Virus record (IMG/VR): IMGVR_UViG_2609459839_000007
Length of the DNA: 16,143 nt
Direction: 5' to 3' (one strand)
DNA from: a virus
Taxonomy: Duplodnaviria; Heunggongvirae; Uroviricota; Caudoviricetes
The notes beneath the pieces were generated by a model. It was not told the DNA's origin and did no database searches. It was given only the letters and a program-made list of their open reading frames with translations. Both the position numbers and the translations under genes were made by a program. Shown here piece after piece: positions 1,159-16,143 of the stretch (the stretch's first letter is position 1; each line of letters starts with the position of its first letter).

Positions 1159-1492
1159 TCCACCTTAACCACTATCGGATAGTACAAAGCTTTGTGTGTC
1201 CCCACTATGACCTGCATAATCAATGAGAAGATAACAGTGATGACAAACGAGGCAGAAGTCTTCTTTTCTTTCATGACTTCTCCAGCATGCATACCTTTCT
1301 GCCATGACTGAAGTGAATGCCTGTTATGAACGAGGATTGGCCCAGACTTAGATAATGAGAGAGCACGGTGCTAATACCCAGACACGTCACCAGCCAGGCA
1401 ACAACAGATGGGGTCATAGCAACATTTTGGAAGGTATCTTCGTATCATTATGTGGTTAAATAGACATAATTTAACCCAATGGAATTTTCGCC

Positions 1493-2095
1493 ATGCTAAC
1501 CTTCTGGCACGAATATTCAGATCTCATCTCCGCATTTTTAGCAGCTCTTTTAGGTGGCTGTTTCACGATGATAGGAGTGACAACTCAGGTGAAACAGCAG
1601 GCAAAACAGCAGGCAACAGCGGCCAGAGAGAAGCGTATAACAACGCTATTGGGTGTCAGAGAGGAAATAGACTCACTGATTAAACTGTATCAGGCCAGAA
1701 TGGCAGAAGAAATCGAAAAATACGACCGGAACTCACCGTTCGATAACATTTTCCCCATTACTCAAAACTACTTCACGTTCTATGAAGCCAACTCGGCATC
1801 CCTACCTGAAGTTCATAGAGAAACACTCTCAAAAATTGTGGCTTTTTATACAAGCGCAAGAAGCCTAATTGATTCCTATCGCGGCAATAATGCGCTTATC
1901 GAACGGCTGGACTCCACGCAGGTTGCAAGTGACATTACTGGCAACAAAGAACATCTTGCACACCTGAAAAGATACACAATCCTAGCCACAGAGTACGGCC
2001 GCGGATTAATGATGATTCATGATGAGGTCATGCTCCGCTATAAACAGGTTATAGAAGCCATCGATGGTGAAATCTCACAGCTACAATGCAGTTAG
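1493..2095 (+). CDS. Hypothetical protein; hydrophobic N-terminal segment (possible TM helix) followed by a helical soluble domain; no recognised family
   Basis: 200-aa ORF; residues ~10-30 (LISAFLAALLGGCFTMIGV) are hydrophobic. No clear SD before the ATG at 1493. An alternative start at 1568 is preceded by AGGTGG (1552-1557) and would remove the hydrophobic segment. AT-rich relative to neighbours. Confidence 0.5.
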   Translation: MLTFWHEYSDLISAFLAALLGGCFTMIGVTTQVKQQAKQQATAAREKRITTLLGVREEIDSLIKLYQARMAEEIEKYDRNSPFDNIFPITQNYFTFYEANSASLPEVHRETLSKIVAFYTSARSLIDSYRGNNALIERLDSTQVASDITGNKEHLAHLKRYTILATEYGRGLMMIHDEVMLRYKQVIEAIDGEISQLQCS

Positions 2096-2576
2096 CACTA
2101 CAACCTGTCCGCATATTGAGCGACACGGTCGGATTTAGTGGGCTGAATGTCCGTTGTGAGCACTTAACGGACATTGCTAACCGCCTTCTGAGTGAATTAT
2201 CAGGGAGTAGGTCAAGATGGGACGTAGAGCACAAATCGTGGACAACATTTTTCGGGCACTTTTTAAAAATGACTAAACTGGTAAAATTCGATGTTATGAG
2301 CTGCGCTTTTAAGGGCCGTTAGTCGCATAGATTGTTAATCTATTCAGCGTTACTCATTCTCCAGATTACCAATTTAAATGGATGCACGGCCACCATGTTA
2401 AAATCTAACGCGGCCCTAAAGTCAGAGTGTAATGGGAAATGCAAGAAGTTATTTTCGTGCGCGTTCACTGGCGCACCTTGAGCAACCATTTCTCAATGCG
2501 TCTTAAAAGAGATGACTTGACTAAATTATGTATGCACTATCTGAATCTGATTTTTTTACTTAAAAGGGGGTTTTCA

Positions 2577-3476
2577 ATGACAGCAATAGCCTGCTGGCTA
2601 AACAGGGAAGAAGGGGAAAGTATCTGGGCCGTAAGCGACTCAAGAATCACCCAGCATGAAAGTGTAATGACAAATCACTGTCCTAAACTATTCTCGATTC
2701 CGGTATCAGTTATTCGCTCCAATGACATATACCGTCTATCTCCGGAAAAAATTATGGAGTTTGGTTTCGGCTTTGCAGGAGGAACAATGATCGGTATAAA
2801 TGTGAAGGAGTTACTTGCCGTATCATTATCTTCATTACATGAAGTTAATTATTATGATGTTCAGCAGCCGGAGTTGACTTATGATAGTTACCCGAGTCTT
2901 TATGAAATTGCAGTTTTAACAAAGGGAATCGCGGAAAAATTTATACTGGATATTGGCCAGTTTTTTCCCCGTTCTGTAGCAACGGAGATGATTATTTACG
3001 GATTCTGTTTCAGAACACAGGTACATAAAATCATTAAGATCTACAACACCCCATCAAACCCCACTAATCTTGTAATTGAGGACTGCCTTGACCTGACAAC
3101 AGGTACCCCGGTAGTCTTGGGAGACAGAAAGCAGCAGTTTCGGGAAGATATTGAGATGACGAGGGGGCGTTTTGAGAATGGCACGCTTAACTGGTGGCGG
3201 GCGTCATTTATCGCGTTAAACAACTGGATATCTCAGGACACCGTAAATACAATTGGTGGGCATATTCAGTTCTCAATGGCGAATAGAATTGGCACAAGAA
3301 ATCTTTTTATGTCCAGCTCAGAGTCTAACCCCCTTGATATGACCTATGCCGGAATCAGTAATACAAGTGCTCTAGGATTTACCATTGGACAACTTAGTAT
3401 TATGCCAATGTTAGGTATGACCCTTCCTGGGGAAAATGGCTGGCCATACGGCGATCAAATACTCCATAATGATTAG
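2577..3476 (+). CDS. Hypothetical protein with proteasome beta-subunit / HslV-like N-terminal nucleophile (Ntn) hydrolase signature and a C-terminal extension
   Basis: 299-aa ORF starting at the ATG at 2577, 6 nt after AAGGGGG (preferred over the in-frame upstream ATG at 2439, which lacks an SD). N-terminus MTAIACWLN...AVSDSRIT...K...GFGFAGGTMIG parallels E. coli HslV TTIVSVRRN...IAGDGQAT...K...AGFAGGTADAF (recalled from memory): Thr directly after Met, Asp ~20, Lys ~36, GFAGG motif. Strongly AT-rich. Confidence 0.6.
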   Translation: MTAIACWLNREEGESIWAVSDSRITQHESVMTNHCPKLFSIPVSVIRSNDIYRLSPEKIMEFGFGFAGGTMIGINVKELLAVSLSSLHEVNYYDVQQPELTYDSYPSLYEIAVLTKGIAEKFILDIGQFFPRSVATEMIIYGFCFRTQVHKIIKIYNTPSNPTNLVIEDCLDLTTGTPVVLGDRKQQFREDIEMTRGRFENGTLNWWRASFIALNNWISQDTVNTIGGHIQFSMANRIGTRNLFMSSSESNPLDMTYAGISNTSALGFTIGQLSIMPMLGMTLPGENGWPYGDQILHND

Positions 3477-3637
3477 AAGGTTAAGTATTTTATATTGGAT
3501 ATATGGCTATTGTGCTGCCATGATTCTAACAAATTATGCTTAAGAGGTGGTGCAACTCCTCTCATACAAAAAATACGTAAAATCAGTAACGGCTGGAAAT
3601 AATTCAATACATACACTCTCGAAAGTGCATCAGCCAA

Positions 3638-3676
3638 CCGCAGCACGTCTTGCATACGGCGTGTCTGCGGTTTTAT
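3638..3676 (+). terminator. Putative rho-independent terminator downstream of the 2577-3476 gene
   Basis: Imperfect stem CCGCAGCACG / GTGTCTGCGG (6 perfect bp plus a bulged extension) followed by TTTTAT; convergent with the invertase stop codon. Confidence 0.3.
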
Positions 3677-4227
3677 ATAATCCTGGCTGGAAACCTCTTA
3701 TACAAAGTCGATACACCAATATCATAGATGATCGCTACCTTCTGGCGAGGAATTCCTGCTGCAATTAATCGTCCGGCCTGCTCCCATTGTTCTGGTGTAA
3801 GTTTGGGGCGACGTCCACCAATTCGTCCCTGTGCGCGAGCAGCTTCCAGTCCAGCTTTTGTTCGTTCAACAATCAGTTCACGCTCCATTTCAGCCAGGGC
3901 ACCCATCACATGAAAGAAAAAGCGTCCCATTGGTGTGCTGGTATCAATTGAATCCGTCAGACTACGAAAGTTGATGCCTCGTTCGCGCAACTCCTCCACC
4001 AGCACGACAAGATGCCGCATACTACGCCCCAGCCGATCCAGCTTCCAGACAACCAGAGTGTCACCTGCCGATAATGTCCTGAGCAGTTTTTTCAGTCCCG
4101 GCCTTTCGGACTTTGTGCCGCTTATCTTGTCTTCAAAAATCAGCTCGCATCCTGCACAGTTCAGCGCATTACGTTGTAGATCTGTGTTCTGGTCATTTGT
4201 TGATACGCGTACATAGCCAATAAGCAT
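3673..4227 (-). CDS. pin: Serine-recombinase DNA invertase (Pin/Gin/Hin/Cin family)
   Basis: 184 aa from the ATG at 4227 (MLIGYVRVSTNDQNTDLQRNAL..., catalytic Ser in VRVSTNDQ), preceded by GGGGGA; C-terminal helix-turn-helix region. The track ORF extends 12 codons further upstream, but the family N-terminus is MLIGY. Confidence 0.85.
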   Translation of the reverse strand: MLIGYVRVSTNDQNTDLQRNALNCAGCELIFEDKISGTKSERPGLKKLLRTLSAGDTLVVWKLDRLGRSMRHLVVLVEELRERGINFRSLTDSIDTSTPMGRFFFHVMGALAEMERELIVERTKAGLEAARAQGRIGGRRPKLTPEQWEQAGRLIAAGIPRQKVAIIYDIGVSTLYKRFPARII

Positions 4228-4253
4228 GGTAGATCCCCCTGACAAAAGCAGGA

Positions 4254-4730
4254 ATGATGCCATTTGCTCGTTATTTCTGCATTTTCATAAACGTTGGTTT
4301 GGGAGAAGCGGCAAAACGGGATGTGGGGACAGGGGAAAATCAGATACCGGACATGGCCTCTTTTGCCAGTGGTGATGGATGGATGAAATTACCCAACGGG
4401 AAAATCCTGCAATATGGTCGTGGTGCGGTTACGCCGACATTATCGACGCAAACAATGAGAATTACATTCAGCATCCCTTTCCCCAAAAAAGCGGACTGCG
4501 CCATGCTTACTCATTCTGGTGATGGCGGTGCGCCTTTAGCTGGCGCAGTCAAAGAAGCGATCAGTGAGGTATTCAGCCGTCAGGCCTGGAGGAAAAACCC
4601 AGCCACAAGCCACGCCGCTGCATTCAGGTCTGCCGGAGACATCTGGTCGACAGAGCTTTGCGGCACTTTCGCCAGCCGCACAATGTATTTAGATACCACA
4701 TGTGCCAGAAGTCTGACGGACTCATCCTGA
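4254..4730 (+). pseudogene. Orphan tail-fibre C-terminal variable segment (remnant of an invertible tail-fibre cassette), promoterless
   Basis: ORF reads rightward across the candidate crossover site; contains GDGWMKLPNGKILQYGRG, resembling the conserved GW.KLP.G.I.QWG motif of variable tail-fibre C-termini. No N-terminal tail-fibre body and no downstream assembly gene. Confidence 0.3.
4282..4307. other. Candidate invertase crossover site (gix/hix/pix-like 26-bp imperfect dyad)
   Basis: TTTTCATAAACG TT GGTTTGGGAGAA resembles the recalled hix/gix pattern TTnTCnnAAACC nn GGTTTnnnGAnAA; lies ~55 bp upstream of the invertase start, the usual position of the invertase-proximal site. Confidence 0.3.
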
Positions 4731-4731
4731 T

Positions 4732-5412
4732 TCATCTGGTAGGGATACCGTCACTGGCAAGCTTGTGACGCCCGTACTTACTGGTAATGACGGATTTCAG
4801 TTTGCGCAGTACATACGCACTGGTATGCAGCGTCTCGCTGTCGAGGTAGCTGTTATCCGCATCCGGCATCTGTTCGTTTTCAGCGATACCGTAACCCGCC
4901 AGAGAGGACGGCTGCCCCAGTTCCAGCCCCGGACGCCACAGATAGTTACCCTCGGTGTCTTTCAGCAAACGGATGGCAAACAGGCTGTTGTTGTTCATCA
5001 TGAACTTCGCGCCGGTGCGGTGTGCCTTACGCAGCGTGTAAATCAGTTTGATAATGGCGTCTGCGGTCACCGCGGTCGCTTCGCCGGATACAATATGCTG
5101 AAGTTTGCCGAACGCCCGGACCTTGTCGGTTTCATCAGTGGATTCATACGCCAGGAACCCTTTCGGCTTCTTGGTGCCATCGCCGGTGGTAAAGGCAATT
5201 TCTTCCTGTTCGGCAAATTCGGTTGCCAGCTCGCTGTTGATCCATGCTTCCACGTTGAAAAAGGCATCATCCAGCATTTTCTGGGTAGCCTGCGGGTTGC
5301 CGTAGATTTCCCCCATGAAAGGTTCAATCAGGCCCAGTTTTGAGGTGGCAGTCTGGGAGCGCGCGTCAGTCTCGCCAACCGGCACTACCTGCTGAGGTGC
5401 CATAGGCGACAC
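4732..5412 (-). pseudogene. Internal fragment of an HK97-family major capsid protein gene
   Basis: Motifs EIAFTTGDGTKKPKGFL, AHRTGAKFMMNNNSLFAIRLLKDTEGNYLWRP and GYGIAENEQMPD match HK97-fold capsid conserved blocks. The ~160 N-terminal residues and the normal C-terminal block are missing; the ORF opens with GTG only by track convention. Confidence 0.6.
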
Positions 5413-5551
5413 CCGTTGTTAACTTATCCATGGATTTCATAACCCCACCTCGCAGACAAAGCGGGTGTAAATTGAGGGAATACTACGAAACGTAACAGAC
5501 TCGGAGTCAGTGAATAACTCAGGTATTGGGTTATCAGCTAATATCGAGACT

Positions 5552-5585
5552 CAAAAAATGGAAAAACCCGCTCGACGGCGGGTTT
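5552..5585 (-). terminator. Putative rho-independent terminator (minus strand) in the AT-rich region upstream of the porin gene
   Basis: Stem CCCGC / GCGGG with A/T extensions (5564-5585), followed on the minus strand by TTTCCATTTTTT. Confidence 0.35.
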
Positions 5586-6012
5586 AAGCTGTGTGACGAA
5601 GTAACCACTCTTAACAGCATAACCAATTTTTTACGTACGTAAACCACTAAATGATATTTGCGAGAATGCTACCGAGTATTGAAAACACCACTACAAATAC
5701 ATAAGCAAATCCCAACAAATAACCAACAAATAATTTCCAGTGTTATTTTTAGCCGGTTTAAATTGAACCTTCAAATTATAGAGCACCTATAAATAACAGC
5801 CGTTAATATAAATTGGCTAATAGATTTATTTTTATTCAGCAAAGAGCCATGAATAGGATTCGATAGAAAAAAGTTCAGATAAAAATAGAGATCTACTTCA
5901 CAAATCAAACGAGAAACCAAAACTTACATCTTGAAATAATCACATTGATTAGATGAATATTTATCGCGCAGTGACATCATTTTTTAATAATAGTTCAAAA
6001 AAAGGGCTCACG

Positions 6013-7110
6013 ATGAAAAAATTAACAGTGGCAATTTCTGCTGTAGCTGCATCAGTACTGATGGCGATGTCTGCTCAGGCAGCTGAAATTTATAATAAAG
6101 ACAGTAACAAGCTGGATCTGTACGGGAAAGTTAATGCTAAGCACTACTTCTCCTCTAATGATGCAGATGATGGTGATACTACTTATGCCCGTCTTGGCTT
6201 CAAAGGTGAAACCCAAATCAACGATCAACTGACTGGTTTCGGTCAGTGGGAATATGAATTCAAAGGCAACCGCGCTGAATCTCAAGGTTCCTCCAAAGAT
6301 AAAACCCGTCTTGCCTTCGCTGGCCTGAAATTCGGTGACTACGGCTCCATCGATTACGGCCGTAACTACGGTGTAGCATACGACATCGGTGCGTGGACTG
6401 ACGTCCTGCCAGAATTCGGTGGTGACACTTGGACTCAAACCGACGTGTTCATGACTCAACGTGCAACTGGTGTTGCAACCTATCGTAACAACGACTTCTT
6501 TGGTCTGGTTGATGGTCTGAACTTTGCTGCTCAGTACCAAGGCAAAAACGATCGTAGCGATTTCGATAACTACACTGAAGGTAACGGTGATGGCTTCGGT
6601 TTCTCTGCTACCTATGAATACGAAGGATTCGGTATCGGTGCAACTTATGCGAAATCTGATCGTACCGACACTCAAGTTAATGCAGGGAAAGTTCTTCCTG
6701 AAGTATTTGCTTCCGGTAAAAATGCAGAAGTTTGGGCCGCAGGTCTGAAATATGACGCTAACAACATTTACCTGGCCACTACCTATTCTGAAACCCAGAA
6801 TATGACTGTATTTGCTGATCACTTCGTTGCTAATAAAGCCCAAAACTTCGAAGCTGTTGCACAATATCAGTTCGATTTCGGTCTGCGTCCGTCCGTTGCT
6901 TACCTGCAATCTAAAGGTAAGGATCTTGGAGTATGGGGCGATCAGGACTTAGTCAAATATGTTGATGTAGGTGCAACCTATTACTTCAACAAAAATATGT
7001 CTACTTTCGTTGATTACAAAATCAACCTGCTTGACAAAAATGACTTCACTAAAGCACTCGGTGTAAGCACTGATGACATCGTTGCTGTAGGTCTGGTTTA
7101 CCAGTTCTAA
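6013..7110 (+). CDS. nmpC: Outer-membrane general porin, NmpC/OmpD-type (OmpC family), intact
   Basis: 365 aa from the ATG at 6013 with signal peptide [30 protein letters not shown], and C-terminal ...GLVYQF beta-barrel terminus. Matches my recollection of E. coli DLP12 NmpC. The track ORF begins 20 codons earlier, but the signal peptide defines the start. Confidence 0.9.
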
Positions 7111-7272
7111 TCTAATTACGAAAAAGATATGTTGCGGGAGGCGTTGCCTCCCCAACATATAAGTGGCTCCCTCAAGCCACTTCCTTTAGAAGCACAACCT
7201 TGCTTCTAACTATATAAACCTTCTGTTATATATTACCCTTTATTTTTGGGGGCGTCTCAACGCCCCATTTTT
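7110..7272 (+). ncRNA. Candidate structured RNA downstream of nmpC (IpeX-like locus): four consecutive hairpins ending in a terminator
   Basis: Hairpins at 7127-7160 (~15-bp stem ATATGTTGCGGGAGGC / GCCTCCCCAACATAT), 7162-7181 (AGTGGCT / AGCCACT), 7188-7207 (AGAAGCA / TGCTTCT) and 7249-7266 (GGGGCG / CGCCCC) plus T-run. Equating this with IpeX is from memory of its map position only. Confidence 0.3.
7249..7272 (+). terminator. Rho-independent terminator
   Basis: GGGGCG-TCTCAA-CGCCCC followed by ATTTTT. Confidence 0.5.
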
Positions 7273-7299
7273 AATAACTTTTAGTAAATAATTGGCATA

Positions 7300-7683
7300 T
7301 TAATTAGAGTTATTAACAACGATATCCATCTCTAACCGGATATCTAATGCCATTAACATCCCTTCAATTATGCCCTCAGCCTTCTGTAACCTTTTCCCGA
7401 TATAACCATCAGAGCAGCAATGCTTACCTGCCAGTGACATGAATGTCATACCGACTACATAATAATCTACTAATAAATCGTGCAAATCGCTGTTGTTCTT
7501 TTTCAGACGGGCCATGCACCCGCAAATAATCATCGCGTCATCGTCACAACATTGCGGGCGAGATTTTACTTTTGAAGTAATTAATCCCTTAAAACCGGCG
7601 GCAATGGACGACCAGGTCACATCTTCATGATTATTAGCCGCCCACGCTCCCCAACGCTCAAGAACCATCTGAATATCACGCAT
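7300..7683 (-). CDS. quuD: Late-gene antiterminator Q (phage 82 / DLP12 QuuD-type)
   Basis: 127 aa from the ATG at 7683 ([22 protein letters not shown]...), preceded by GGAG; matches recalled QuuD sequence. Cys-rich zinc-binding region present. Confidence 0.8.
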
Positions 7684-7768
7684 CAACTTACTCCACAAAA
7701 ATCAGACCAGAACGCCAATTACAAGCAAAAATCAACAAAACAGTATTAGTTGATTGTTATCTCTGACT

Positions 7769-7909
7769 TCATACTCCTGCTCCTGTCAGGGTTTTGGCGT
7801 AATTCTTCAGTATTCGGTAATCGGTCAAAACAGAACCGGGGAAACGATATAAGCGCAGATGCCCCCAGCGGTGGCGAAGAAGTTCTGCCATATAAAACTC
7901 AAACATCAT
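7769..7909 (-). CDS. ylcG: YlcG-family small prophage protein (46 aa)
   Basis: Below the ORF-track cutoff; hand-translated as [46 protein letters not shown]. Its start codon overlaps the rusA stop. Confidence 0.6.
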
Positions 7910-8268
7910 TCATTCCCCATTTCGGTGATGGTCAGTTCCAGCCTCCCACCTTTGGTAACAGGCATCTTCACAACGCGGTAATCAACGACCAGCTCATCAT
8001 CCAGCCAGAAACCTGCTTTAGTGAGTGCGTCAAAAGCGGCTTTTTGCAGATTATCCAGGTCACGGCGACGGCGATCCGGCATGTGGCACTCAATGCGGAT
8101 TTTCACAGGCATAGCCAGACCGATATCCAGCATTGAGCCTTTAATGATTCGGGCGACGTTATCGCGGTATGCCTGCCCTTCTGCGCTGATGTGCGTGCGC
8201 CCTCGATTATGGCGGTAGTAGCGGTTATTGCTCGGCGGCCAGGGTAGTGTGATGTGGTAAGTATTCAC
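7906..8268 (-). CDS. rusA: Holliday-junction resolvase RusA
   Basis: 120 aa, [26 protein letters not shown]...[22 protein letters not shown]..., matching recalled E. coli RusA. Start codon is GTG, overlapping the ybcO stop. Confidence 0.9.
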
Positions 8269-8555
8269 GCCTTAATTACCCCCTCTTTCAGCCAGATAAC
8301 CTGCGTTCTCGCCATACCTTCCAGCGCGCATTCTTTTGCATATCCAGCGTCAACAAAATGCGTGCGGCGGTCGATTTCGTCGTGGCAGGCAGAACATGCA
8401 ATGGTGGCAATCAGGTCTGGCGGTTTCGTACCGGTGCCGCACAATCCAGTCAGCCGGATATGTGCCAGTACAGACGTTTCAGGGTTGCCATTACATACGC
8501 CAGGGATTCTTACCTGGCATTCCCGACCACGCGCTGCTTTTCTCAAATCAGCCAT
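8265..8555 (-). CDS. ybcO: YbcO-family (DUF1364) Cys-rich prophage protein, putative nuclease
   Basis: 96 aa from the ATG at 8555 ([23 protein letters not shown]...), preceded by AGGAGG; matches recalled DLP12 YbcO. Confidence 0.8.
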
Positions 8556-8718
8556 GACTCCTCCTTGCTGCCAGTCGCAACCATTTTTTATCAACCAAGC
8601 TGGCGGTATATCCGAGCAGTGTTGGTATTTCGGATGGCTTCAGCTCAGGTTTACGCTTACGACGATTTGGTACTCTGTAGATGTATCCGTTCATGACACG
8701 AATAAGCGGTGTAGCCAT
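8548..8718 (-). CDS. ninE: NinE-family protein
   Basis: 56 aa ([56 protein letters not shown]); basic KRKP/WLR pattern as in lambda NinE. Start overlaps the ybcN stop. Confidence 0.75.
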   Translation of the reverse strand: MATPLIRVMNGYIYRVPNRRKRKPELKPSEIPTLLGYTASLVDKKWLRLAARRSHG

Positions 8719-9173
8719 TACGCCTCCTGCTTGTCGCGCAGCAGCTGAAACTCGCAGCTCTGTGGAATAGTCAGGTGGCAACCAATATTCACCGCCCAGG
8801 CTTCAACCTTACACAGGAAGATATACATCTCTCCGGTATCAAGATCGGAGGTATGGCGTAACGACTGGATAGTGGTGATCTCACCGGTTACGACATCAAC
8901 CAGGTCTTTGGTTTCATAACCGAGATATGTGTGTTTGAGAGCATCTTTTACCCAAGCTGGAGTGGCGAACGTTTTACCCCTGCTGATGAGGTATTCACTG
9001 ATTTCGCTGTACCACATGTGGCTGAGTGCATTCTGGGAAAGACTGCGTTTCTCACGCCACGGTTTAAGCACCATGCGAAAGCATTTGCCTTCCTCCAGAT
9101 AAGGCTGGATCTGCTGGCCGATAGCGGTGAAGTTACCACGATGCAATTTGATGCCGTCTTGTGGGAGGTTCAC
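8718..9173 (-). CDS. ybcN: YbcN-family prophage protein (DLP12 YbcN-like; reported as a DNA base-flipping protein)
   Basis: 151 aa, GTG start at 9173 preceded by GGAGGTGA; sequence [55 protein letters not shown]... matches recalled DLP12 YbcN. Confidence 0.75.
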
Positions 9174-9206
9174 GCTTCACCTCCGCAGAGGTCAAACGCT
9201 GGATGC

Positions 9207-9291
9207 AAAAAATCGCAGGTGCATCTCTGCATCTGTGAAGGGAGAAGAGAGTTTGGATTGTATGTGCGCATAAACGTCCCCGTTTAGCGCA
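9207..9291. repeat. Copy A of an ~85-bp direct repeat with an embedded 11-bp-stem hairpin
   Basis: Aligns with 11141-11225 at 80/85 identical positions in direct orientation; contains TGCGCATAAACG-TCCC-CGTTTAGCGCA. Lies immediately 5' (minus-strand sense) of ybcN. Confidence 0.85.
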
Positions 9292-9367
9292 GAAGTCACC
9301 GGAGTTGTTCAAGCTCCAATGGCATGATTATGGCTGGTTGATTATTGGAAATCAAATGTGCTGAAAA

Positions 9368-9877
9368 TTAGTCTGCCAAGTCTTCCTCAGTCGCAACTGG
9401 GTAATTCCAAATATCAAAAAAAGCTATAGCCTCCTGCCATTTGCTCCATAAGTTATCAAGTACTTGTGTAGGTTCCGTACTTTTAAAAACAGAATCAGCC
9501 GCATCACCGTTATGAACTTCCTCGTACAGTTCCATTATTAGCAGATTAACAAAGTACTGTTTCAACATTAATGCCTGATTACCTTCTTTCTGCTGGCTAT
9601 CCTGCTTGATGAGCTCCATCGCCCGTACTAGGCACCTGATGATATCCGCTGCATCATTAACGCTCCATTCAGATCCGCGCTTATCTTTAGCTGATGAATT
9701 GGCTCTCTCAGCGCAAGCCTTTAAAGACTCATAAAGGTAAACTCTATTTTGTAGCTGCAGCGCTTTTTTTGACGTGCACCAACTTGCAAGCGCCGACCCC
9801 GCTGCGGCTAATGTGCCAAACGCAGAAATGCCTGCTGCTATTGCACTTAAGTCGGCACTGTCAAAGTTCCACATCAT
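9368..9877 (-). CDS. Hypothetical single-pass membrane protein (moron in the nin region)
   Basis: 169 aa; ATG at 9877 preceded by AAGGTG. N-terminal hydrophobic stretch LSAIAAGISAFGTLAAAGSALASW, then an acidic helical domain. AT-rich, with its own AT-rich upstream region. Confidence 0.6.
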   Translation of the reverse strand: MMWNFDSADLSAIAAGISAFGTLAAAGSALASWCTSKKALQLQNRVYLYESLKACAERANSSAKDKRGSEWSVNDAADIIRCLVRAMELIKQDSQQKEGNQALMLKQYFVNLLIMELYEEVHNGDAADSVFKSTEPTQVLDNLWSKWQEAIAFFDIWNYPVATEEDLAD

Positions 9878-10052
9878 CGTTACACCTTATATAAACACCC
9901 CTCAGTAATATCCAATAAGGTATGTGAACAATCAATATAATTTATATCCGTATCGGCACATAGCGATTTTAATGCTACTGATAATGGTATCTTTTAGATT
10001 ATATCGTCCAGTTCCAGTACCCGTATTTTATGAAATGGACTCGCACATTACC

Positions 10053-10093
10053 AAAAAAAATGCCAGCACTTCCGTCATCGCAGAATGCTGGCA
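10053..10093 (-). terminator. Rho-independent terminator after the Bro-N gene
   Basis: 8-bp stem TGCCAGCA / TGCTGGCA (10061-10093) followed on the minus strand by a T8 run (10053-10060). Confidence 0.5.
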
Positions 10094-10112
10094 GTATTTC
10101 TAACTAGTGACT

Positions 10113-10721
10113 TTATTGCAACAGATTCTGACGGAAATATGGTAACACACGACTCCACTTATCATCCTGCCACGGTTGGAATTTTACATGCGCCGTTTCT
10201 CTGGCAAGGATTTCTCGCGCCCTGTTGAGTATCCGAGGATATTCTTGTTCGATTGAAGTGAATCTACCTGCTTCGCGATGCTCTGCGACCTGAAGAAGGG
10301 GCGTAACGTTCTGGCAGGCGGTTAACATCGTATCACTTGCTCGCCATAACCAGGCGAGTGTGCAAAGTTCGTTATCAGTGAATTGTTTTGTGATTGGGGA
10401 TTGTTGAACTTCTCGATCGAGAATATCCAGAACCCAGCGGCGGAATTCTTTGGCCACAGGAGTACGAGCAAACATGGCGATCAAATGGGCTCCGCGAAGG
10501 CTAAATACTCGAGACTCCTGCATTCCACGAGGGGTGGTCACTTTGACCACCCTTGTCATCATATCTGTGAATTCATCTGAGTGCCGAGAGTAAATGCGCT
10601 GAACTGCTTTATCGTCCGCATATTCCAGTGCTAAACCAACTTCAGTGGCAGTAAGCCAAATTCTGTTATTGTGGCAAATCGGGGTAAACGTCGTTTTGTG
10701 GAATGCTAATTGAGTAGTCAT
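10113..10721 (-). CDS. Bro-N domain protein (putative phage antirepressor-like regulator)
   Basis: 202 aa; ATG at 10721 preceded by GAGGTGA. N-terminal region (NNRIWLTATEVGLALEY...RVFSLRGAHLIAMFARTPVAKEFRRWVLD) fits the Bro-N pattern. Confidence 0.65.
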   Translation of the reverse strand: MTTQLAFHKTTFTPICHNNRIWLTATEVGLALEYADDKAVQRIYSRHSDEFTDMMTRVVKVTTPRGMQESRVFSLRGAHLIAMFARTPVAKEFRRWVLDILDREVQQSPITKQFTDNELCTLAWLWRASDTMLTACQNVTPLLQVAEHREAGRFTSIEQEYPRILNRAREILARETAHVKFQPWQDDKWSRVLPYFRQNLLQ

Positions 10722-10876
10722 AGTATCACCTCATCAGGTTAACCATCACCACCAACGACGCCAATCGACTGGTGGTGAACTGTGTAAGGTTGGCGTAACC
10801 GGCTACTCAAACCCGGCGCTTCCGAAGAAGCCCTCACACAGCCCACCATAATTTGGGCATAGCCGTGCTTAGCGCA

Positions 10877-10898
10877 CAAAAAAACCGCTTAACGCGGT
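10877..10898 (-). terminator. Putative rho-independent terminator (minus strand)
   Basis: ACCGC-TTAAC-GCGGT hairpin (10884-10898) followed on the minus strand by a T7 run (10877-10883); lies ~85 nt downstream of the small ORF at 10985-11074. Confidence 0.4.
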
Positions 10899-10984
10899 AT
10901 GCGTTGAGTAGTATCCCGGGACGCCAATCCCGTGTGCCGATTTTGCGGCAACGCACAGAATATAGCGCCGGATAAATCATGTCG

Positions 10985-11074
10985 TCAACCCCAGTAAATG
11001 GACACCATGATGATCACAGCCATAGCTGCTACAACAGTTACAACTACCTCAGGCCAAAACATAACGATTTCCAT
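10985..11074 (-). CDS. Small hydrophobic peptide (29 aa), candidate membrane peptide
   Basis: Below the ORF-track cutoff; hand-translated as MEIVMFWPEVVVTVVAAMAVIIMVSIYWG. ATG at 11074 preceded by AAAGGTGA; downstream terminator at 10877-10898; copy B of the 85-bp repeat lies just upstream. Confidence 0.3.
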   Translation of the reverse strand: MEIVMFWPEVVVTVVAAMAVIIMVSIYWG

Positions 11075-11140
11075 ATCACCTTTAGCCGCCAGACGAATAG
11101 AGACTCCCAATTCTGGCTGTCGAAGTAAAACACCGAATGT

Positions 11141-11225
11141 AAAAAATCGTAGGTGCATTTCTGCATCTGTGAATGGAGATGAGAGTTTGGATTGTGTGTG
11201 CGCATAAACGTCCCCGTTTAGCGCA
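11141..11225. repeat. Copy B of the ~85-bp direct repeat with embedded hairpin
   Basis: 80/85 identical to 9207-9291; same hairpin TGCGCATAAACG-TCCC-CGTTTAGCGCA. Confidence 0.85.
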
Positions 11226-11363
11226 ACCCCACCACCGGGTGTTCAGGCCGACAGTAACTATATTATTCCCTACTGATTTTTGAAAATCAAAGGTCTTTAT
11301 ACGTCACACGAGAGCAAATATTTCCGAAGAAGAAACCTTTCGCCTTGAAAGGATAAAGAGTTC

Positions 11364-11410
11364 ATTTCATAAATTGAAATATTCAATAAGAATATTTCAA
11401 AAAATGAAAT
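11364..11410. promoter_or_regulatory. Cluster of three overlapping dyad symmetries (candidate operator) upstream of the 11534 gene
   Basis: ATTTCA-N5-TGAAAT (11364-11380), GAAATATTC-N5-GAATATTTC (11376-11398), ATTTCA-N5-TGAAAT (11394-11410), in an AT-rich region 125-170 bp upstream of the start codon. Confidence 0.35.
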
Positions 11411-11533
11411 TATTTACTAGCGAGTCTATCTAACTGATAATTATGAAGATTGTAAGCGGTAGCAATCACCCGCATACACATTGAACAGGATTTAATACAA
11501 AACGTCTTAAATTGTCCGTAAGGAATAGCACGA

Positions 11534-13036
11534 ATGACTCAAACTCCTCTATTACTTGCAATCATATTTTTATTGGTTGTTCTTGTTCTTTATATAGCTG
11601 CAATCAAACGCATCAAAAAATTACAATTAGAATTAAGTGATAGCAATCAAAAAAATGAAGAATACAAATCTCGCTTTGCAGATTATTTTAATGTAGAAGA
11701 AGAATGTAAGAAGCTTATTGAGAAAACAGAGCAAGAATGCTCCATAATAAAAGAAGAATCCCTAAAAGTAAAAGAAAATGCCAATAATGAACTAACAAAC
11801 ACCATTGAAAAAATGGATGGTATCAATAAACAAATCCAAGAGCTAAGAAGAACTTATAAAGAGAAGAAAGAAATATATGATAAACTAGTAAGGCAAATTT
11901 CTATTTATTCAGAAGATGTTGAGCTAGCCGAACTAGGATTTTACGAACCTCATTTTAATTTTGAAGATTCAGAGCAATTTAAAAACAAAATAAAATCCAT
12001 CAGGGATGAACAGAAATTAATGCTGCGGGATAAAACCCACTCTGGCGCAGTATATTGTACAACCCAATGGACTGTTGAAGGCTCTCGAGCAGAGGGTAAA
12101 AAAATGACAGACAGAAATATCAGGCTAACTACTAGAGCATTTAATAATGAATGTGATGCTGCAATTAGCAATTGCACGTGGAAAAACATCACTAAAATGG
12201 AAGAACGCATCACAAAGGCATTTGAGGCCATAAATAAACTAAACGAGCAAAATCACATATATATAAACACTAAATACCTCAATAAAAAACTTGAGGAATT
12301 GTGGCTTACCCATGAATATCGTGAGCAAAAACAGAAAGAAAAAGAAGAACAGGCAGAAATAAGGGCACAAATGAGAGAGGAGGAGCGTGCACAACGAGAA
12401 ATAGAAAAGGCCATGCAAGACGCAGAGGCAGAAGAGCGCCGTTATAAAAAAGCAATTGAAGCTGCAAGAAAGGAAATGGAAAAAGTTACTGGTGACATGA
12501 AGCAGCGCCTCGAAAATCGCATTGCCGAACTAGAACAGAGTTTGTCGCAGGCTGAATCAAAGCATCAAAGAGCATTATCCATGGCACAACAAACCAAACA
12601 AGGTCATGTTTATATTATTTCGAACATAGGTTCTTTTGGGGAGAATGTTTATAAAATAGGCATGACACGACGTCTTGATCCGCAAGACCGTGTAAATGAG
12701 CTCGGTGATGCATCTGTTCCTTTTATTTTTGATGTACATGCCATGATTTATTCGGAGGACGCTCCATCATTAGAAAAAAAACTACATGATGTCTTCGATA
12801 AAAAGAGAGTCAATCTTGTAAATCGTAGAAAAGAGTTTTTCTATATTACTCTGGATGAGATCAAAGAAGCTGTTAAAAAACACTCTGATTCAGAAATTGA
12901 ATTTATTGAGACAGCAGTCGCAAAAGACTTTAATGAGTCATTGGCTATTCGTAATCATGAAAATAAAAAAAGTGACAACAGCAACTCATCAATTATACCT
13001 GAGCGAAAAACCCCAGAGTTTGCAGATGCAATTTAA
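11534..13036 (+). CDS. Membrane-anchored coiled-coil protein with C-terminal GIY-YIG-type nuclease domain (T5orf172-like; architecture resembles DUF4041-T5orf172 proteins)
   Basis: 500 aa; ATG at 11534 preceded by AAGGAA. N-terminal TM helix (LLLAIIFLLVVLVLYIAAI), two E/K/R-rich coiled-coil stretches, and C-terminal GHVYIISNIGSFGENVYKIGMTRR...PFIFDVHAMIY...KEFFYITLDEI (GxVY...YKIG, Arg, Glu). Very AT-rich. Confidence 0.8.
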   Translation: MTQTPLLLAIIFLLVVLVLYIAAIKRIKKLQLELSDSNQKNEEYKSRFADYFNVEEECKKLIEKTEQECSIIKEESLKVKENANNELTNTIEKMDGINKQIQELRRTYKEKKEIYDKLVRQISIYSEDVELAELGFYEPHFNFEDSEQFKNKIKSIRDEQKLMLRDKTHSGAVYCTTQWTVEGSRAEGKKMTDRNIRLTTRAFNNECDAAISNCTWKNITKMEERITKAFEAINKLNEQNHIYINTKYLNKKLEELWLTHEYREQKQKEKEEQAEIRAQMREEERAQREIEKAMQDAEAEERRYKKAIEAARKEMEKVTGDMKQRLENRIAELEQSLSQAESKHQRALSMAQQTKQGHVYIISNIGSFGENVYKIGMTRRLDPQDRVNELGDASVPFIFDVHAMIYSEDAPSLEKKLHDVFDKKRVNLVNRRKEFFYITLDEIKEAVKKHSDSEIEFIETAVAKDFNESLAIRNHENKKSDNSNSSIIPERKTPEFADAI

Positions 13037-13274
13037 TTAATTTGTAGTAGCAATAAAGCAGGCATCGTTGAGAATATTTTGTCAGCGATGCTTACTTCTC
13101 TAACAAAAACGGTGATTACCAACGAACTAACGGACTTCAGGTAATCATAAGACAAATGGAACGACTCTCCGGTGATTAGATCCCTGCAATAACAGTAATT
13201 TTCTACTAACTGAAAAATCTTTAACTGCCGCTCCTATTTCTAAGCTGACTGCTAGATTACATGGTGTGTTACCG

Positions 13275-13397
13275 ATGAAAACCGTCACCCGTGCATTTGA
13301 TGACGATGTTGAGTTTCAGGAGCGCATGGCAGAACACATCCGGTACATGGTTGAAACCATTGCTCACCATCAGGTTGATATTGATTCAGAGGTATAA
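13275..13397 (+). pseudogene. gam: Truncated gam (lambda Gam C-terminal ~35 residues only)
   Basis: Translation ...[36 protein letters not shown] matches the recalled C-terminus of lambda Gam; similarity is lost upstream of about 13285. Confidence 0.6.
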
Positions 13398-13402
13398 AAC
13401 GG

Positions 13403-14188
13403 ATGAGTACAGCACTCGCAACGCTGGCTGGGAAGCTGGCTGAACGTGTCGGCATGGATTCTGTCGACCCACAGGAACTGATCACCACTCTTCGCCAGAC
13501 GGCATTTAAAGGTGATGCCAGCGATGCGCAGTTCATCGCATTGTTGATCGTCGCCAACCAGTACGGCCTTAATCCGTGGACGAAAGAAATTTACGCCTTC
13601 CCTGATAAGCAGAACGGCATCGTTCCGGTGGTGGGCGTTGATGGCTGGTCCCGCATCATCAATGAAAACCAGCAGTTTGATGGCATGGACTTTGAGCAGG
13701 ACAATGAATCCTGTACATGCCGGATTTACCGCAAAGACCGTAATCATCCGATCTGCGTTACCGAGTGGATGGATGAATGCCGCCGCGAACCATTCAAAAC
13801 CCGCGAAGGCAGAGAAATCACCGGACCGTGGCAGTCGCATCCCAAACGGATGTTACGGCATAAAGCCATGATTCAGTGTGCCCGTCTGGCCTTTGGATTT
13901 GCGGGTATCTATGACAAGGATGAAGCCGAGCGCATTGTCGAAAATACCGCATACACTGCAGAACGTCAGCCGGAACGCGACATCACTCCGGTTAACGATG
14001 AAACCATGCAGGAGATTAACACTCTGCTGATCGCCCTGGATAAAACATGGGATGACGACTTATTGCCGCTCTGTTCCCAGATATTTCGCCGCGACATTCG
14101 CGCATCGTCAGAACTGACACAGGCCGAAGCAGTGAAAGCTCTTGGATTCCTGAAACAGAAAGCCACTGAGCAGAAGGTGGCAGCATGA
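13403..14188 (+). CDS. bet: Lambda Red single-strand annealing protein Bet
   Basis: 261 aa, [43 protein letters not shown]..., essentially as recalled for lambda Bet; stop overlaps the exo start. Confidence 0.95.
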
Positions 14189-14865
14189 CACCAGACATTA
14201 TCCTGCAGCGTACCGGGATCGACGTGAGAGCTGTCGAGCAGGGGGATGATGCGTGGCACAAATTACGGCTCGGCGTCATCACAGCTTCAGAAGTTCACAA
14301 CGTGATAGCAAAACCCCGCTCCGGAAAGAACTGGCCTGACATGAAAATGTCCTACTTCCACACCCTGCTTGCTGAGGTTTGCACCGGTGTGGCTCCGGAA
14401 GTTAACGCTAAGGCGCTGGCCTGGGGAAAACAGTACGAGAACGACGCCAGAGCCCTGTTTGAGTTTACTTCCGGCGTTAATGTTACTGAATCCCCGATCA
14501 TCTATCGCGACGAAAGTATGCGCACCGCCTGCTCTCCCGATGGTTTATGCAGTGACGGCAACGGCCTTGAGCTGAAATGCCCGTTTACCTCCCGGGATTT
14601 CATGAAATTCCGGCTCGGTGGTTTCGAGGCCATAAAATCGGCTTACATGGCCCAGGTGCAGTACAGCATGTGGGTGACGCGAAAAGATGCCTGGTACTTT
14701 GCCAACTATGACCCGCGCATGAAGCGTGAAGGCCTGCATTATGTCGTGGTTGAGCGGGATGAAAAGTACATGGCGAATTTTGACGAGATGGTGCCGGAGT
14801 TCATCGAAAAAATGGACGAGGCACTGGCTGAAATTGGTTTTGTATTTGGGGAGCAATGGCGATGA
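14185..14865 (+). CDS. exo: Lambda Red 5'-3' exonuclease Exo
   Basis: 226 aa, [40 protein letters not shown]..., as recalled for lambda exonuclease. Confidence 0.95.
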
Positions 14866-15044
14866 AGCATCCTCACGATAATATCCGGGTAGGCACGATC
14901 ACTTTCGTCTACTCCGTTACAAAGCGAGGCTGGGTATTTCCCGGCCTTTCTGTTATCCAAAATCCACTGAAAGCCCAGCGGCTGGCTGAGGAGATAAATA
15001 ATAAACGAGGGGCTGTATGCACAAAGCATCTCCTGTTGAGTTAA
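14856..15044 (+). CDS. Lambda orf60a-like small protein
   Basis: 62 aa, [62 protein letters not shown]; same position after exo as in lambda. Confidence 0.65.
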
Positions 15045-15208
15045 GAACGAGCATTGAGATGGCACATAGCCTTGCTCAAATTGGAGTCAGGTTTGTGCCA
15101 ATACCAGCAGAAACAGACGAAGAGTTTCATACGTTAGCCACATCCCTTTCACAAAAGCTGGAAATGATGGTGGCGAAAGCAGAAGCAGATGAGAGAGACC
15201 AGGTATGA
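15017..15208 (+). CDS. Lambda orf63-like small protein
   Basis: 63 aa, [63 protein letters not shown]. Confidence 0.6.
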   Translation: MHKASPVELRTSIEMAHSLAQIGVRFVPIPAETDEEFHTLATSLSQKLEMMVAKAEADERDQV

Positions 15209-15284
15209 CAACCACTGAATGCATTTTTCTGGCAGCGGGCTTCATATTCTGTGTGCTTATGCTTGCCGACATGGGACTTGTTCA

Positions 15285-15500
15285 ATGACACCTCAGCAAG
15301 AAAACGCCCTTCGCAGTATTGCCCGTCAGGCTAATTCTGAAATCAAAAAAGCCAGACAGCAGTTTCCGGATAAAAACGTCGATGACATTTGCCGTAGCGT
15401 ACTGAAGAAGCACCGCGAAACGGTAACGCTGATGGGATTCACACCGACTCATTTAAGCCTGGCGATCGGCATGTTAAACGGCGTCTTTAAGGAGCGATGA
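15285..15500 (+). CDS. Lambda orf61-like small protein
   Basis: 71 aa from the ATG at 15285 (MTPQQENALRSIARQANSEIKKARQQFPDK...); track ORF starts at 15219 in the same frame. A 27-codon hydrophobic mini-ORF (15205-15288) overlaps this start. Confidence 0.55.
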   Translation: MTPQQENALRSIARQANSEIKKARQQFPDKNVDDICRSVLKKHRETVTLMGFTPTHLSLAIGMLNGVFKER

Positions 15501-15521
15501 ACATGAAAAGCAAAATCATCA

Positions 15522-15544
15522 GGGAGCTACAGGCTCCTTTTTTA
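15522..15544 (+). terminator. Putative rho-independent terminator
   Basis: GGAGC-TACAG-GCTCC followed by TTTTTTATTG. Confidence 0.45.
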
Positions 15545-15598
15545 TTGTTCGCATTCATCCTCAAGCGTATTAACCAACAATTCAGGGATTAATGGAAG

Positions 15599-15817
15599 AT
15601 GGCAGACATCATTGATTCAGCATCAGAAATCGAAGAATTACAGCGCAATACAGCAATAAAAATGCGTCGTCTGAACTACCAGACTGTATCCGCAACTCAT
15701 TGTTGTGAGTGTGGCGATCCGATAGATGAGCGAAGACGCCTGGCTGTTCAGGGTTGTCGGACTTGTGCAAGTTGCCAGGAGGAGATCGAACTTAAGAACA
15801 AACAATGGGGACTGTGA
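15599..15817 (+). CDS. TraR/DksA-family C4-type zinc-finger protein (phage-encoded)
   Basis: 72 aa with CCECGDPI...(17 aa)...CRTCASC four-Cys motif near the C-terminus. Confidence 0.65.
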   Translation: MADIIDSASEIEELQRNTAIKMRRLNYQTVSATHCCECGDPIDERRRLAVQGCRTCASCQEEIELKNKQWGL

Positions 15818-15864
15818 TGGCCTCAAAGCAGCAAATTTCAACATCGTCCAACTGAGGTGTAAAA

Positions 15865-16143
15865 ATGTTCAGAATCATTTTTCCTAACACCTGGTACGTC
15901 GACCACCACGGCACTCCCTGCAAAATCCTGCGTTCTACCCACAACAAAGTTCACTACATCCGAAAAGGCAGAACATGTATCGCCAGCATGTTCCGCTTTA
16001 ATCATGACTTTGAACCTGTGAATAAAGCTGATGCAGATCGGATAGCAGAAGAGATCGAAACGGCAGAACACATTAAGAAGTTACGTGACATGCGTTCAAA
16101 AAGCAGAGGTAACCATGGAATCATACAGCCTCACACTCGATGA
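15865..16143 (+). CDS. Hypothetical prophage protein
   Basis: 92-aa ORF; ATG at 15865 preceded by GAGGTG; stop is the last codon of the window. No family recognised. Confidence 0.45.
   Translation: MFRIIFPNTWYVDHHGTPCKILRSTHNKVHYIRKGRTCIASMFRFNHDFEPVNKADADRIAEEIETAEHIKKLRDMRSKSRGNHGIIQPHTR

Follow-up and report, generated by a model that had tools for sequence, protein, structure and literature searches.

The defence gene PD-λ-1 was found in E. coli ECOR26 by functional selection against λvir, and its activity was confirmed by plaque assay (Vassallo et al. 2022, PMC9519451). It is a 1,503-nt gene on contig QOXL01000020, encodes protein RCP76574.1 and was cloned with its own flanks; the cloned interval spans 48998-50844 and the gene 49060-50562 (supplement file 2, PMC9519451). 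On a promoter-less vector the gene was active from its own promoter (PMC9519451). Saxton et al. (Nature 2026, PMC13190303) renamed PD-λ-1 as SNIPE and showed that this nuclease of the inner membrane cuts the DNA of siphoviruses while their genomes are being injected; its topology was mapped by PhoA-LacZα fusions. The prototype and about 66% of the homologues have the N-terminal membrane anchor, which is not universal. Defence is abolished by the substitution E414A or by deletion of DUF4041, a domain which promotes DNA binding and probably contacts tape measure proteins (PMC13190303). SNIPE lacking the transmembrane (TM) helix (ΔTM) is highly toxic: it relocates to the nucleoid and introduces double-strand breaks into the DNA of the host, and the toxicity is suppressed by E414A (PMC13190303).

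The timing and the place of cleavage have also been described for the prototype. Radiolabelled λ DNA and ParB-tracked genomes showed that SNIPE cuts during, not after, injection, and prophage induction was unchanged by SNIPE (PMC13190303). Membrane-bound SNIPE spares host DNA, even DNA artificially tethered to the membrane (PMC13190303). By proximity labelling, SNIPE lies near the mannose permease ManYZ before infection and near λ's tape measure protein while infection is under way (PMC13190303). Defence is strong and ManYZ-dependent against λ-like phages, and weaker and ManYZ-independent against many other siphoviruses; that DUF4041 touches the tape measure protein directly was indicated both by DUF4041 mutations with gain of function and by changes in the Bas14 tape measure protein that allow escape (PMC13190303).

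Zorya, Kiwa and the superinfection exclusion proteins (HK97 gp15 and those of lambda type) resemble SNIPE in acting at the inner membrane when the genome is injected, and prophage-encoded defences of the entry stage protect the lysogen (PMC13190303). SNIPE is one polypeptide that cuts DNA itself, whereas the other entry defences sense envelope perturbation or block the channel. These systems have no meaningful sequence relation to SNIPE (ZorA match E = 0.12, PADLOC). The SNIPE family is thus already found, validated and mechanistically explained, so that a further copy has little discovery value in itself. What is described below is how one such copy compares with the prototype, and how it came to its present position.

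The DNA analysed here, called the window, is a 16,143-nt stretch of a tailed-phage record (IMG/VR IMGVR_UViG_2609459839_000007). It contains an open reading frame (ORF) at 11534..13036 on the + strand, with an ATG start, 500 codons and a stop, and an AAGGA Shine-Dalgarno-like motif 9-13 nt upstream of the ATG. The gene has a GC content of 0.351 and the interval 11208-13288 one of 0.357, against 0.466 in the rest of the window. The gene and its own upstream and downstream non-coding DNA form an AT-rich island at about 11226..13288, collinear with positions 7923-10089 of phage PhiR26_1 and with a prophage of E. coli WP2-S18-ESBL-07. An earlier sequence-only reading had picked out this AT-rich 500-aa gene, an N-terminal TM helix, a T5orf172/GIY-YIG nuclease block and a DUF4041-T5orf172 architecture, all of which were borne out by the profile searches and hydropathy values below. 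It had also suggested a single-gene, membrane-anchored anti-phage nuclease, which agrees with the full-length PD-Lambda-1 match and with a tested relative that is 99.6% identical.

The protein matches the PADLOC PD-Lambda-1 model PDLC03976 from aa 1 to 485 (profile 1-485 of 491, 657 bits, E = 3.7e-198), and a second PD-Lambda-1 model, PDLC03977, over its full length (E = 1.4e-194). It also matches phrog_1847, a PHROG family without assigned function, at 651 bits. At the amino acid level, 498 of 500 residues are identical to XSB42081.1 of PhiR26_1 (PV340555.1), which is annotated 'PD-lambda-1'; PhiR26_1 is the only phage record with the whole SNIPE gene. From the name of this phage, presumably a phage of ECOR26, and from the annotation, we infer that its protein is the one tested from ECOR26. 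The ECOR26 protein and the window protein are both 500 aa long, from genes of 1,503 nt, with the same order of TM helix, helical region, DUF4041, helical region and GIY-YIG domain. All nine residues named in PMC13190303 (E414, E223, N250, L253, W257, E264, K305, I308 and T319) are found at the same positions. Thus the gene at 11534..13036 is a near-identical copy of the already characterised SNIPE (PD-λ-1), and it can be annotated confidently as such. Annotation pipelines are already renaming the family: precomputed annotations give PF13250 as 'SNIPE', and RefSeq names some copies 'SNIPE associated domain-containing protein'. The sequence-only reading had left open whether the family had been tested; the plaque assay (PMC9519451) and the experiments on E414A and on ΔTM toxicity (PMC13190303) had already been published.

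The domains of the protein were located by Pfam profiles. DUF4041 (PF13250, now Pfam 'SNIPE') lies at 12125..12289 (+), aa 198-252, covering profile positions 2-56 of 56 with 70.4 bits (cut-off 27). T5orf172 (PF10544), a nuclease domain of the GIY-YIG type, lies at 12602..12880 (+), aa 357-449, with 61.8 bits (cut-off 20), and MUG113 (PF13455) matches aa 373-449 with 67.9 bits. The codon of the catalytic Glu414 is at 12773-12775 (+), in the context PSLEKKL. With HMM E-values down to 3.7e-198, the ORF, its domains and the gam remnant described below are not products of chance. The NCBIfam search with the SNIPE protein returned spurious low-score matches only, and the PDB sequence search only chance-level matches to helical proteins (E ≥ 0.078).

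The N-terminal TM helix is placed at 11543..11605 (+), about aa 4-24, and is predicted to anchor the protein in the inner membrane; the prediction comes from hydropathy and from a confident helix in an AlphaFold2 model. The mean Kyte-Doolittle hydropathy of aa 6-24 (LLLAIIFLLVVLVLYIAAI) is 3.37 in a 19-residue window. Single-sequence AlphaFold2 modelled helices at aa 4-132 and 247-362, with pLDDT values of about 70-88 as far as about aa 120 and of about 63-83 across aa 250-350. The pLDDT was below 50 over most of aa 123-214 and 351-448, so that the DUF4041 and GIY-YIG regions are of low confidence in the model. Since these values are too low in the globular parts, the assignment of the GIY-YIG fold rests on the Pfam matches.

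The T5orf172 domain takes its name from an ORF of phage T5, and GIY-YIG homing endonucleases are common in phages. The gene could on these grounds be read as a selfish homing endonuclease of the free-standing T5orf172 type, with no part in defence. We regard this as vanishingly improbable, since the nuclease domain is joined here to a TM helix, long helices and DUF4041, the PD-Lambda-1 match is full-length, and a protein 99.6% identical has been shown to localise to the membrane and to confer defence. The candidate defence proteins of PDC-S57 in PADLOC share the nuclease domain with SNIPE (PDLC05041, E = 1.1e-18, aa 354-468); over the TM, helical and DUF4041 regions of SNIPE, neither these nor other T5orf172/GIY-YIG proteins match.

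The genes around SNIPE do not look like partners. A PADLOC scan of the ORFs adjoining SNIPE gave no matches, and searches of PADLOC, PHROGs and NCBIfam assigned no function to the neighbouring ORFs (no matches, or only families of unknown function). The flanks vary among the window, PhiR26_1 and the WP2-S18-ESBL-07 prophage, in that a Rha module is present or absent and ren is present or deleted. SNIPE here fits a single-gene system without an obligatory partner, like the prototype, for which one protein is listed.

By analogy with the prototype, the copy in the window would act as follows. Held in the membrane, SNIPE would be inactive towards the chromosome and would associate with ManYZ, the route by which λ-like phage DNA is injected. 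During injection it would also associate with the tape measure protein through the DUF4041 region, which would bind DNA as well, and the C-terminal GIY-YIG nuclease would then cut the incoming phage genome. The outcome would be a direct, non-abortive defence against siphoviruses, in which DNA already in the cell, such as that of a resident prophage, is left alone. Since the window copy has kept an intact ORF, an intact upstream region and the named functional residues, it is expected to work like the prototype; a nuclease-dependent defence of this allele against siphoviruses is thus suggested by a protein that is 99.6% identical.

A nuclease of this kind might instead be an abortive-infection or toxin effector that breaks down the DNA of the host upon infection, killing the cell, as the high toxicity and host double-strand breaks of the ΔTM prototype could suggest (PMC13190303). 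The TM helix is intact in the window copy, however, and membrane-bound SNIPE is auto-inhibited towards host DNA, even when that DNA is tethered to the membrane (PMC13190303). The radiolabelled phage DNA was cut during injection, and PD-λ-1 is described as a direct defence, which time-lapse microscopy was meant to confirm (PMC13190303). Death of the host as the mode of defence is accordingly very improbable.

The position of the gene was compared with PhiR26_1 and the WP2-S18-ESBL-07 prophage. In both, the order is Q–ylcG–rusA–ybcO–(ninE)–ybcN–(phrog_1779 ORF–Rha)–small ORF–SNIPE, with SNIPE on the + strand, followed by ren (−), P, O, cII, cro, cI (+), accessory genes, kil, gam, bet and exo. 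SNIPE is therefore a moron that has the nin/Rha genes on one side and ren on the other, and it runs antisense to the pR operon. In PhiR26_1 and the E. coli prophage examined, kil and full-length gam lie 5-6 kb beyond SNIPE. The flanking DNA of the window copy is the same as that of the known SNIPE locus upstream, and downstream up to the ren stop codon. Beyond this point the window departs from the inducible carrier phage of SNIPE, for its prophage is without the DNA from ren to gam codon 62, and without lysis and structural genes.

In the window SNIPE lies directly upstream of the gam remnant (gam'), bet and exo, on the same strand. The sequence-only reading had for this reason assigned it to the lambda N-cIII-kil position, and one could suppose that SNIPE natively replaced kil, cIII and N as a moron of the pL operon and is expressed with the early-left region. 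By BLAST, however, two stretches of the window are collinear with separate segments of PhiR26_1: window 5377-13288 corresponds to PhiR26_1 2177-10089 (98.8%), and window 13278-16085 to PhiR26_1 15281-18089 (97.5%). In the window they share 11 bp, and in PhiR26_1 they are 5.19 kb apart. The deletion junction is at 13278..13288, with the 3' flank of SNIPE up to the ren stop codon on the left and gam from codon 63 on the right. Base-level alignment placed the left breakpoint exactly at the ren stop codon, 13285-13287 (TCA on the + strand), and imperfect microhomology is present at the junction (AAAACCGTCAC vs AAAGCCATTAC). Relative to PhiR26_1, about 5.2 kb is missing, namely ren, P, O, cII, cro, cI, a lipoprotein gene, kil and 62 codons of gam; relative to other prophages about 6 kb is missing. 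The ren stop is also where the phage match and each of the 15 best matches in E. coli end, with 'protein ren' listed among the features of most of them, and the window retains no pL, N or immunity gene. SNIPE adjoins gam'-bet-exo in the window because of this deletion of about 5.2 kb, and an origin as an early-left moron is extremely improbable. The early-left placement is a deletion artefact, and the window gives no evidence for a defence hotspot at N-cIII-kil.

The same junction was found in E. coli GCA_000601315.1 (contig JHDQ01000043.1, 100% identity over 8,610 bp) and in the Logan assembly SRR1186308. Seen in two independent records, the junction is genuine, and the first of them is probably where the window comes from. 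Among 5,426 complete E. coli genomes, none spanned the junction with a 201-bp query, and the SNIPE island was present in 131; a 32-mer across the junction had no match in a collection of one genome per species.

Our explanation of the locus has three parts. SNIPE would be a moron of a lambdoid prophage, expressed in lysogeny, with its native site between nin/Rha and ren; the prophage would have decayed in the strain from which the window comes; and one deletion, from the ren stop codon to gam codon 62, would have taken replication, immunity and kil and put SNIPE upstream of gam'-bet-exo. Taken whole, with the mechanism of the prototype, the native nin/Rha-ren site and the adjacency to gam'-bet-exo made by deletion, this explanation is in our judgement highly probable.

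The window allele is rare. Its exact protein, WP_032231243.1, is on two contigs by cluster look-up and on three by contig look-up, while the common allele (that of PhiR26_1, WP_000195116.1) is on at least 1,000 contigs. Over window 11122-13288 only three nucleotides differ from PhiR26_1, at 11397, 11621 and 12845, which are too few to infer selection. The two in the coding region (11621 and 12845) are both non-synonymous (L30I and I438V), the window protein having Leu30 for Ile and Ile438 for Val relative to PhiR26_1 and the common allele; both changes are conservative. Residue 30 closely follows the TM helix and lies in the N-terminal region that has been implicated in the association with ManYZ, and residue 438 is in the nuclease domain.

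Within the 412 nt upstream of SNIPE there is one difference from the inducible phage PhiR26_1, at 11397. A consensus scan found a candidate σ70 promoter, TTTACT-17-GATAAT, at 11413..11441 (+), about 90 nt upstream of the ATG, and this site is identical in PhiR26_1. About 280 nt of native upstream DNA containing the σ70-like site probably sufficed for defence in the cloned PD-λ-1. On the strength of this consensus match, SNIPE in the window may be expressed from its own promoter within the remnant.

These data also bear on whether the window copy is an inert relic, silenced by L30I and I438V or by loss of the regulatory context of the prophage. The prophage is heavily decayed, with a truncated capsid gene and with lysis, immunity and replication gone; the allele is rare; and neither coding difference is silent. 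Yet the ORF of 500 codons is fully open in AT-rich, stop-prone DNA, the conservative substitutions fall outside the named functional residues, the upstream DNA is one base off that of the inducible phage, and its own promoter was enough for the tested gene to work on a vector that supplies none. We consider an inert copy quite improbable, and a working SNIPE remains the preferred reading.

To the right of the junction, gam is reduced to its last 36 codons and the stop, at 13287..13397 (+), without its native start codon, as seen in the alignment to PhiR26_1 Gam. A program-called ORF of 43 aa at 13266-13397 matches positions 60-98 of 98 of the Pfam Gam profile. Two intact genes follow on the + strand: bet at 13403-14188 (261 aa, Pfam RecT, 115.6 bits) and exo at 14185-14865 (226 aa, Pfam YqaJ, 105.2 bits). 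The sequence-only reading had given gam as cut to its last ~35 codons and bet and exo as intact, and was close on the first point and right on the second, both genes being of full length. The genes bet and exo are neighbours of SNIPE through deletion, and not functional partners.

The deletion also removed pL, N and every early-left terminator, and a consensus scan of the 250 nt between the SNIPE stop and gam' found no terminator-like element on the + strand. With the terminators gone and none found before gam', the SNIPE promoter may read into bet-exo. One may imagine from this arrangement a domesticated SNIPE-bet-exo unit that would give constitutive, low-level Red recombinase without Gam from a non-inducible remnant; we think such a unit unlikely. 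It is the only idea here that goes beyond the literature, and it would be of modest interest if true.

The locus adds to the cases in which a defence gene has outlasted its prophage: SNIPE was kept together with a porin gene and bet-exo, and immunity, replication, lysis and structural genes were lost. The porin gene, at 5953-7110 (+), is intact and of the OmpC/OmpD/NmpC type (Porin_1, 523 bits). It lies between Q and the former lysis region, and is found in the same place in PhiR26_1, where it is called 'OmpD'. The DNA upstream of it (5600-6000) is very AT-rich, with a GC content of about 0.30. The porin gene is a lysogenic-conversion gene kept in the remnant alongside SNIPE.

Upstream of the SNIPE island there is a direct repeat of 104 bp, 89% identical, at 9188-9291 and 11122-11225. 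The two copies bracket a 1.8-kb module with the phrog_1779 ORF and a Rha/Bro-N antirepressor-like gene. The WP2-S18-ESBL-07 prophage is without this module, and a single repeat copy stands immediately upstream of its SNIPE island, which suggests that recombination between the two copies adds or removes the Rha module.

The first three letters of the window are the ATG of intS (1-1158). In the related strain NADC1036, intS is about 160 bp from a tRNA-Arg gene (3765-5158 of that locus), and in the GCA_000601315.1 locus (8695-9503) genes for a LysR-type regulator and a GntP-family permease come directly after the DUF4222 gene. Since the remnant ends at intS and at the LysR/GntP chromosomal genes, the whole of it measures only about 16.7 kb. 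Lysis genes and nearly all structural genes are gone from it. After intS come an invertase gene, a tail-fibre fragment and a truncated capsid gene. A second decay scar is located at about 5377, preceded by a C-terminal tail-fibre fragment (4254-4730) and the truncated major capsid gene (4732-5412), which covers Pfam profile positions 48-219 of 280. Next to the capsid fragment comes lambdoid DNA whose start falls within the PhiR26_1 holin region. The remnant is probably a composite of two elements, because the integrase gene is at the tail-fibre end and not at the exo end.

Between intS and the pinE-like invertase gene, an AT-rich module of two ORFs occupies 1181-3670, with ORFs at 1493-2095 and 2439/2577-3476, both on the + strand. 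The first ORF has a hydrophobic N-terminus, and neither ORF has a match in Pfam, PADLOC, PHROG or NCBIfam. The 2.5-kb module occurs elsewhere at 99% identity, including on plasmid pSM107_MCR, where it is beside a different integrase gene and tail-fibre genes. It looks like mobile cargo of unassigned function, and is possibly of more interest than the SNIPE finding.
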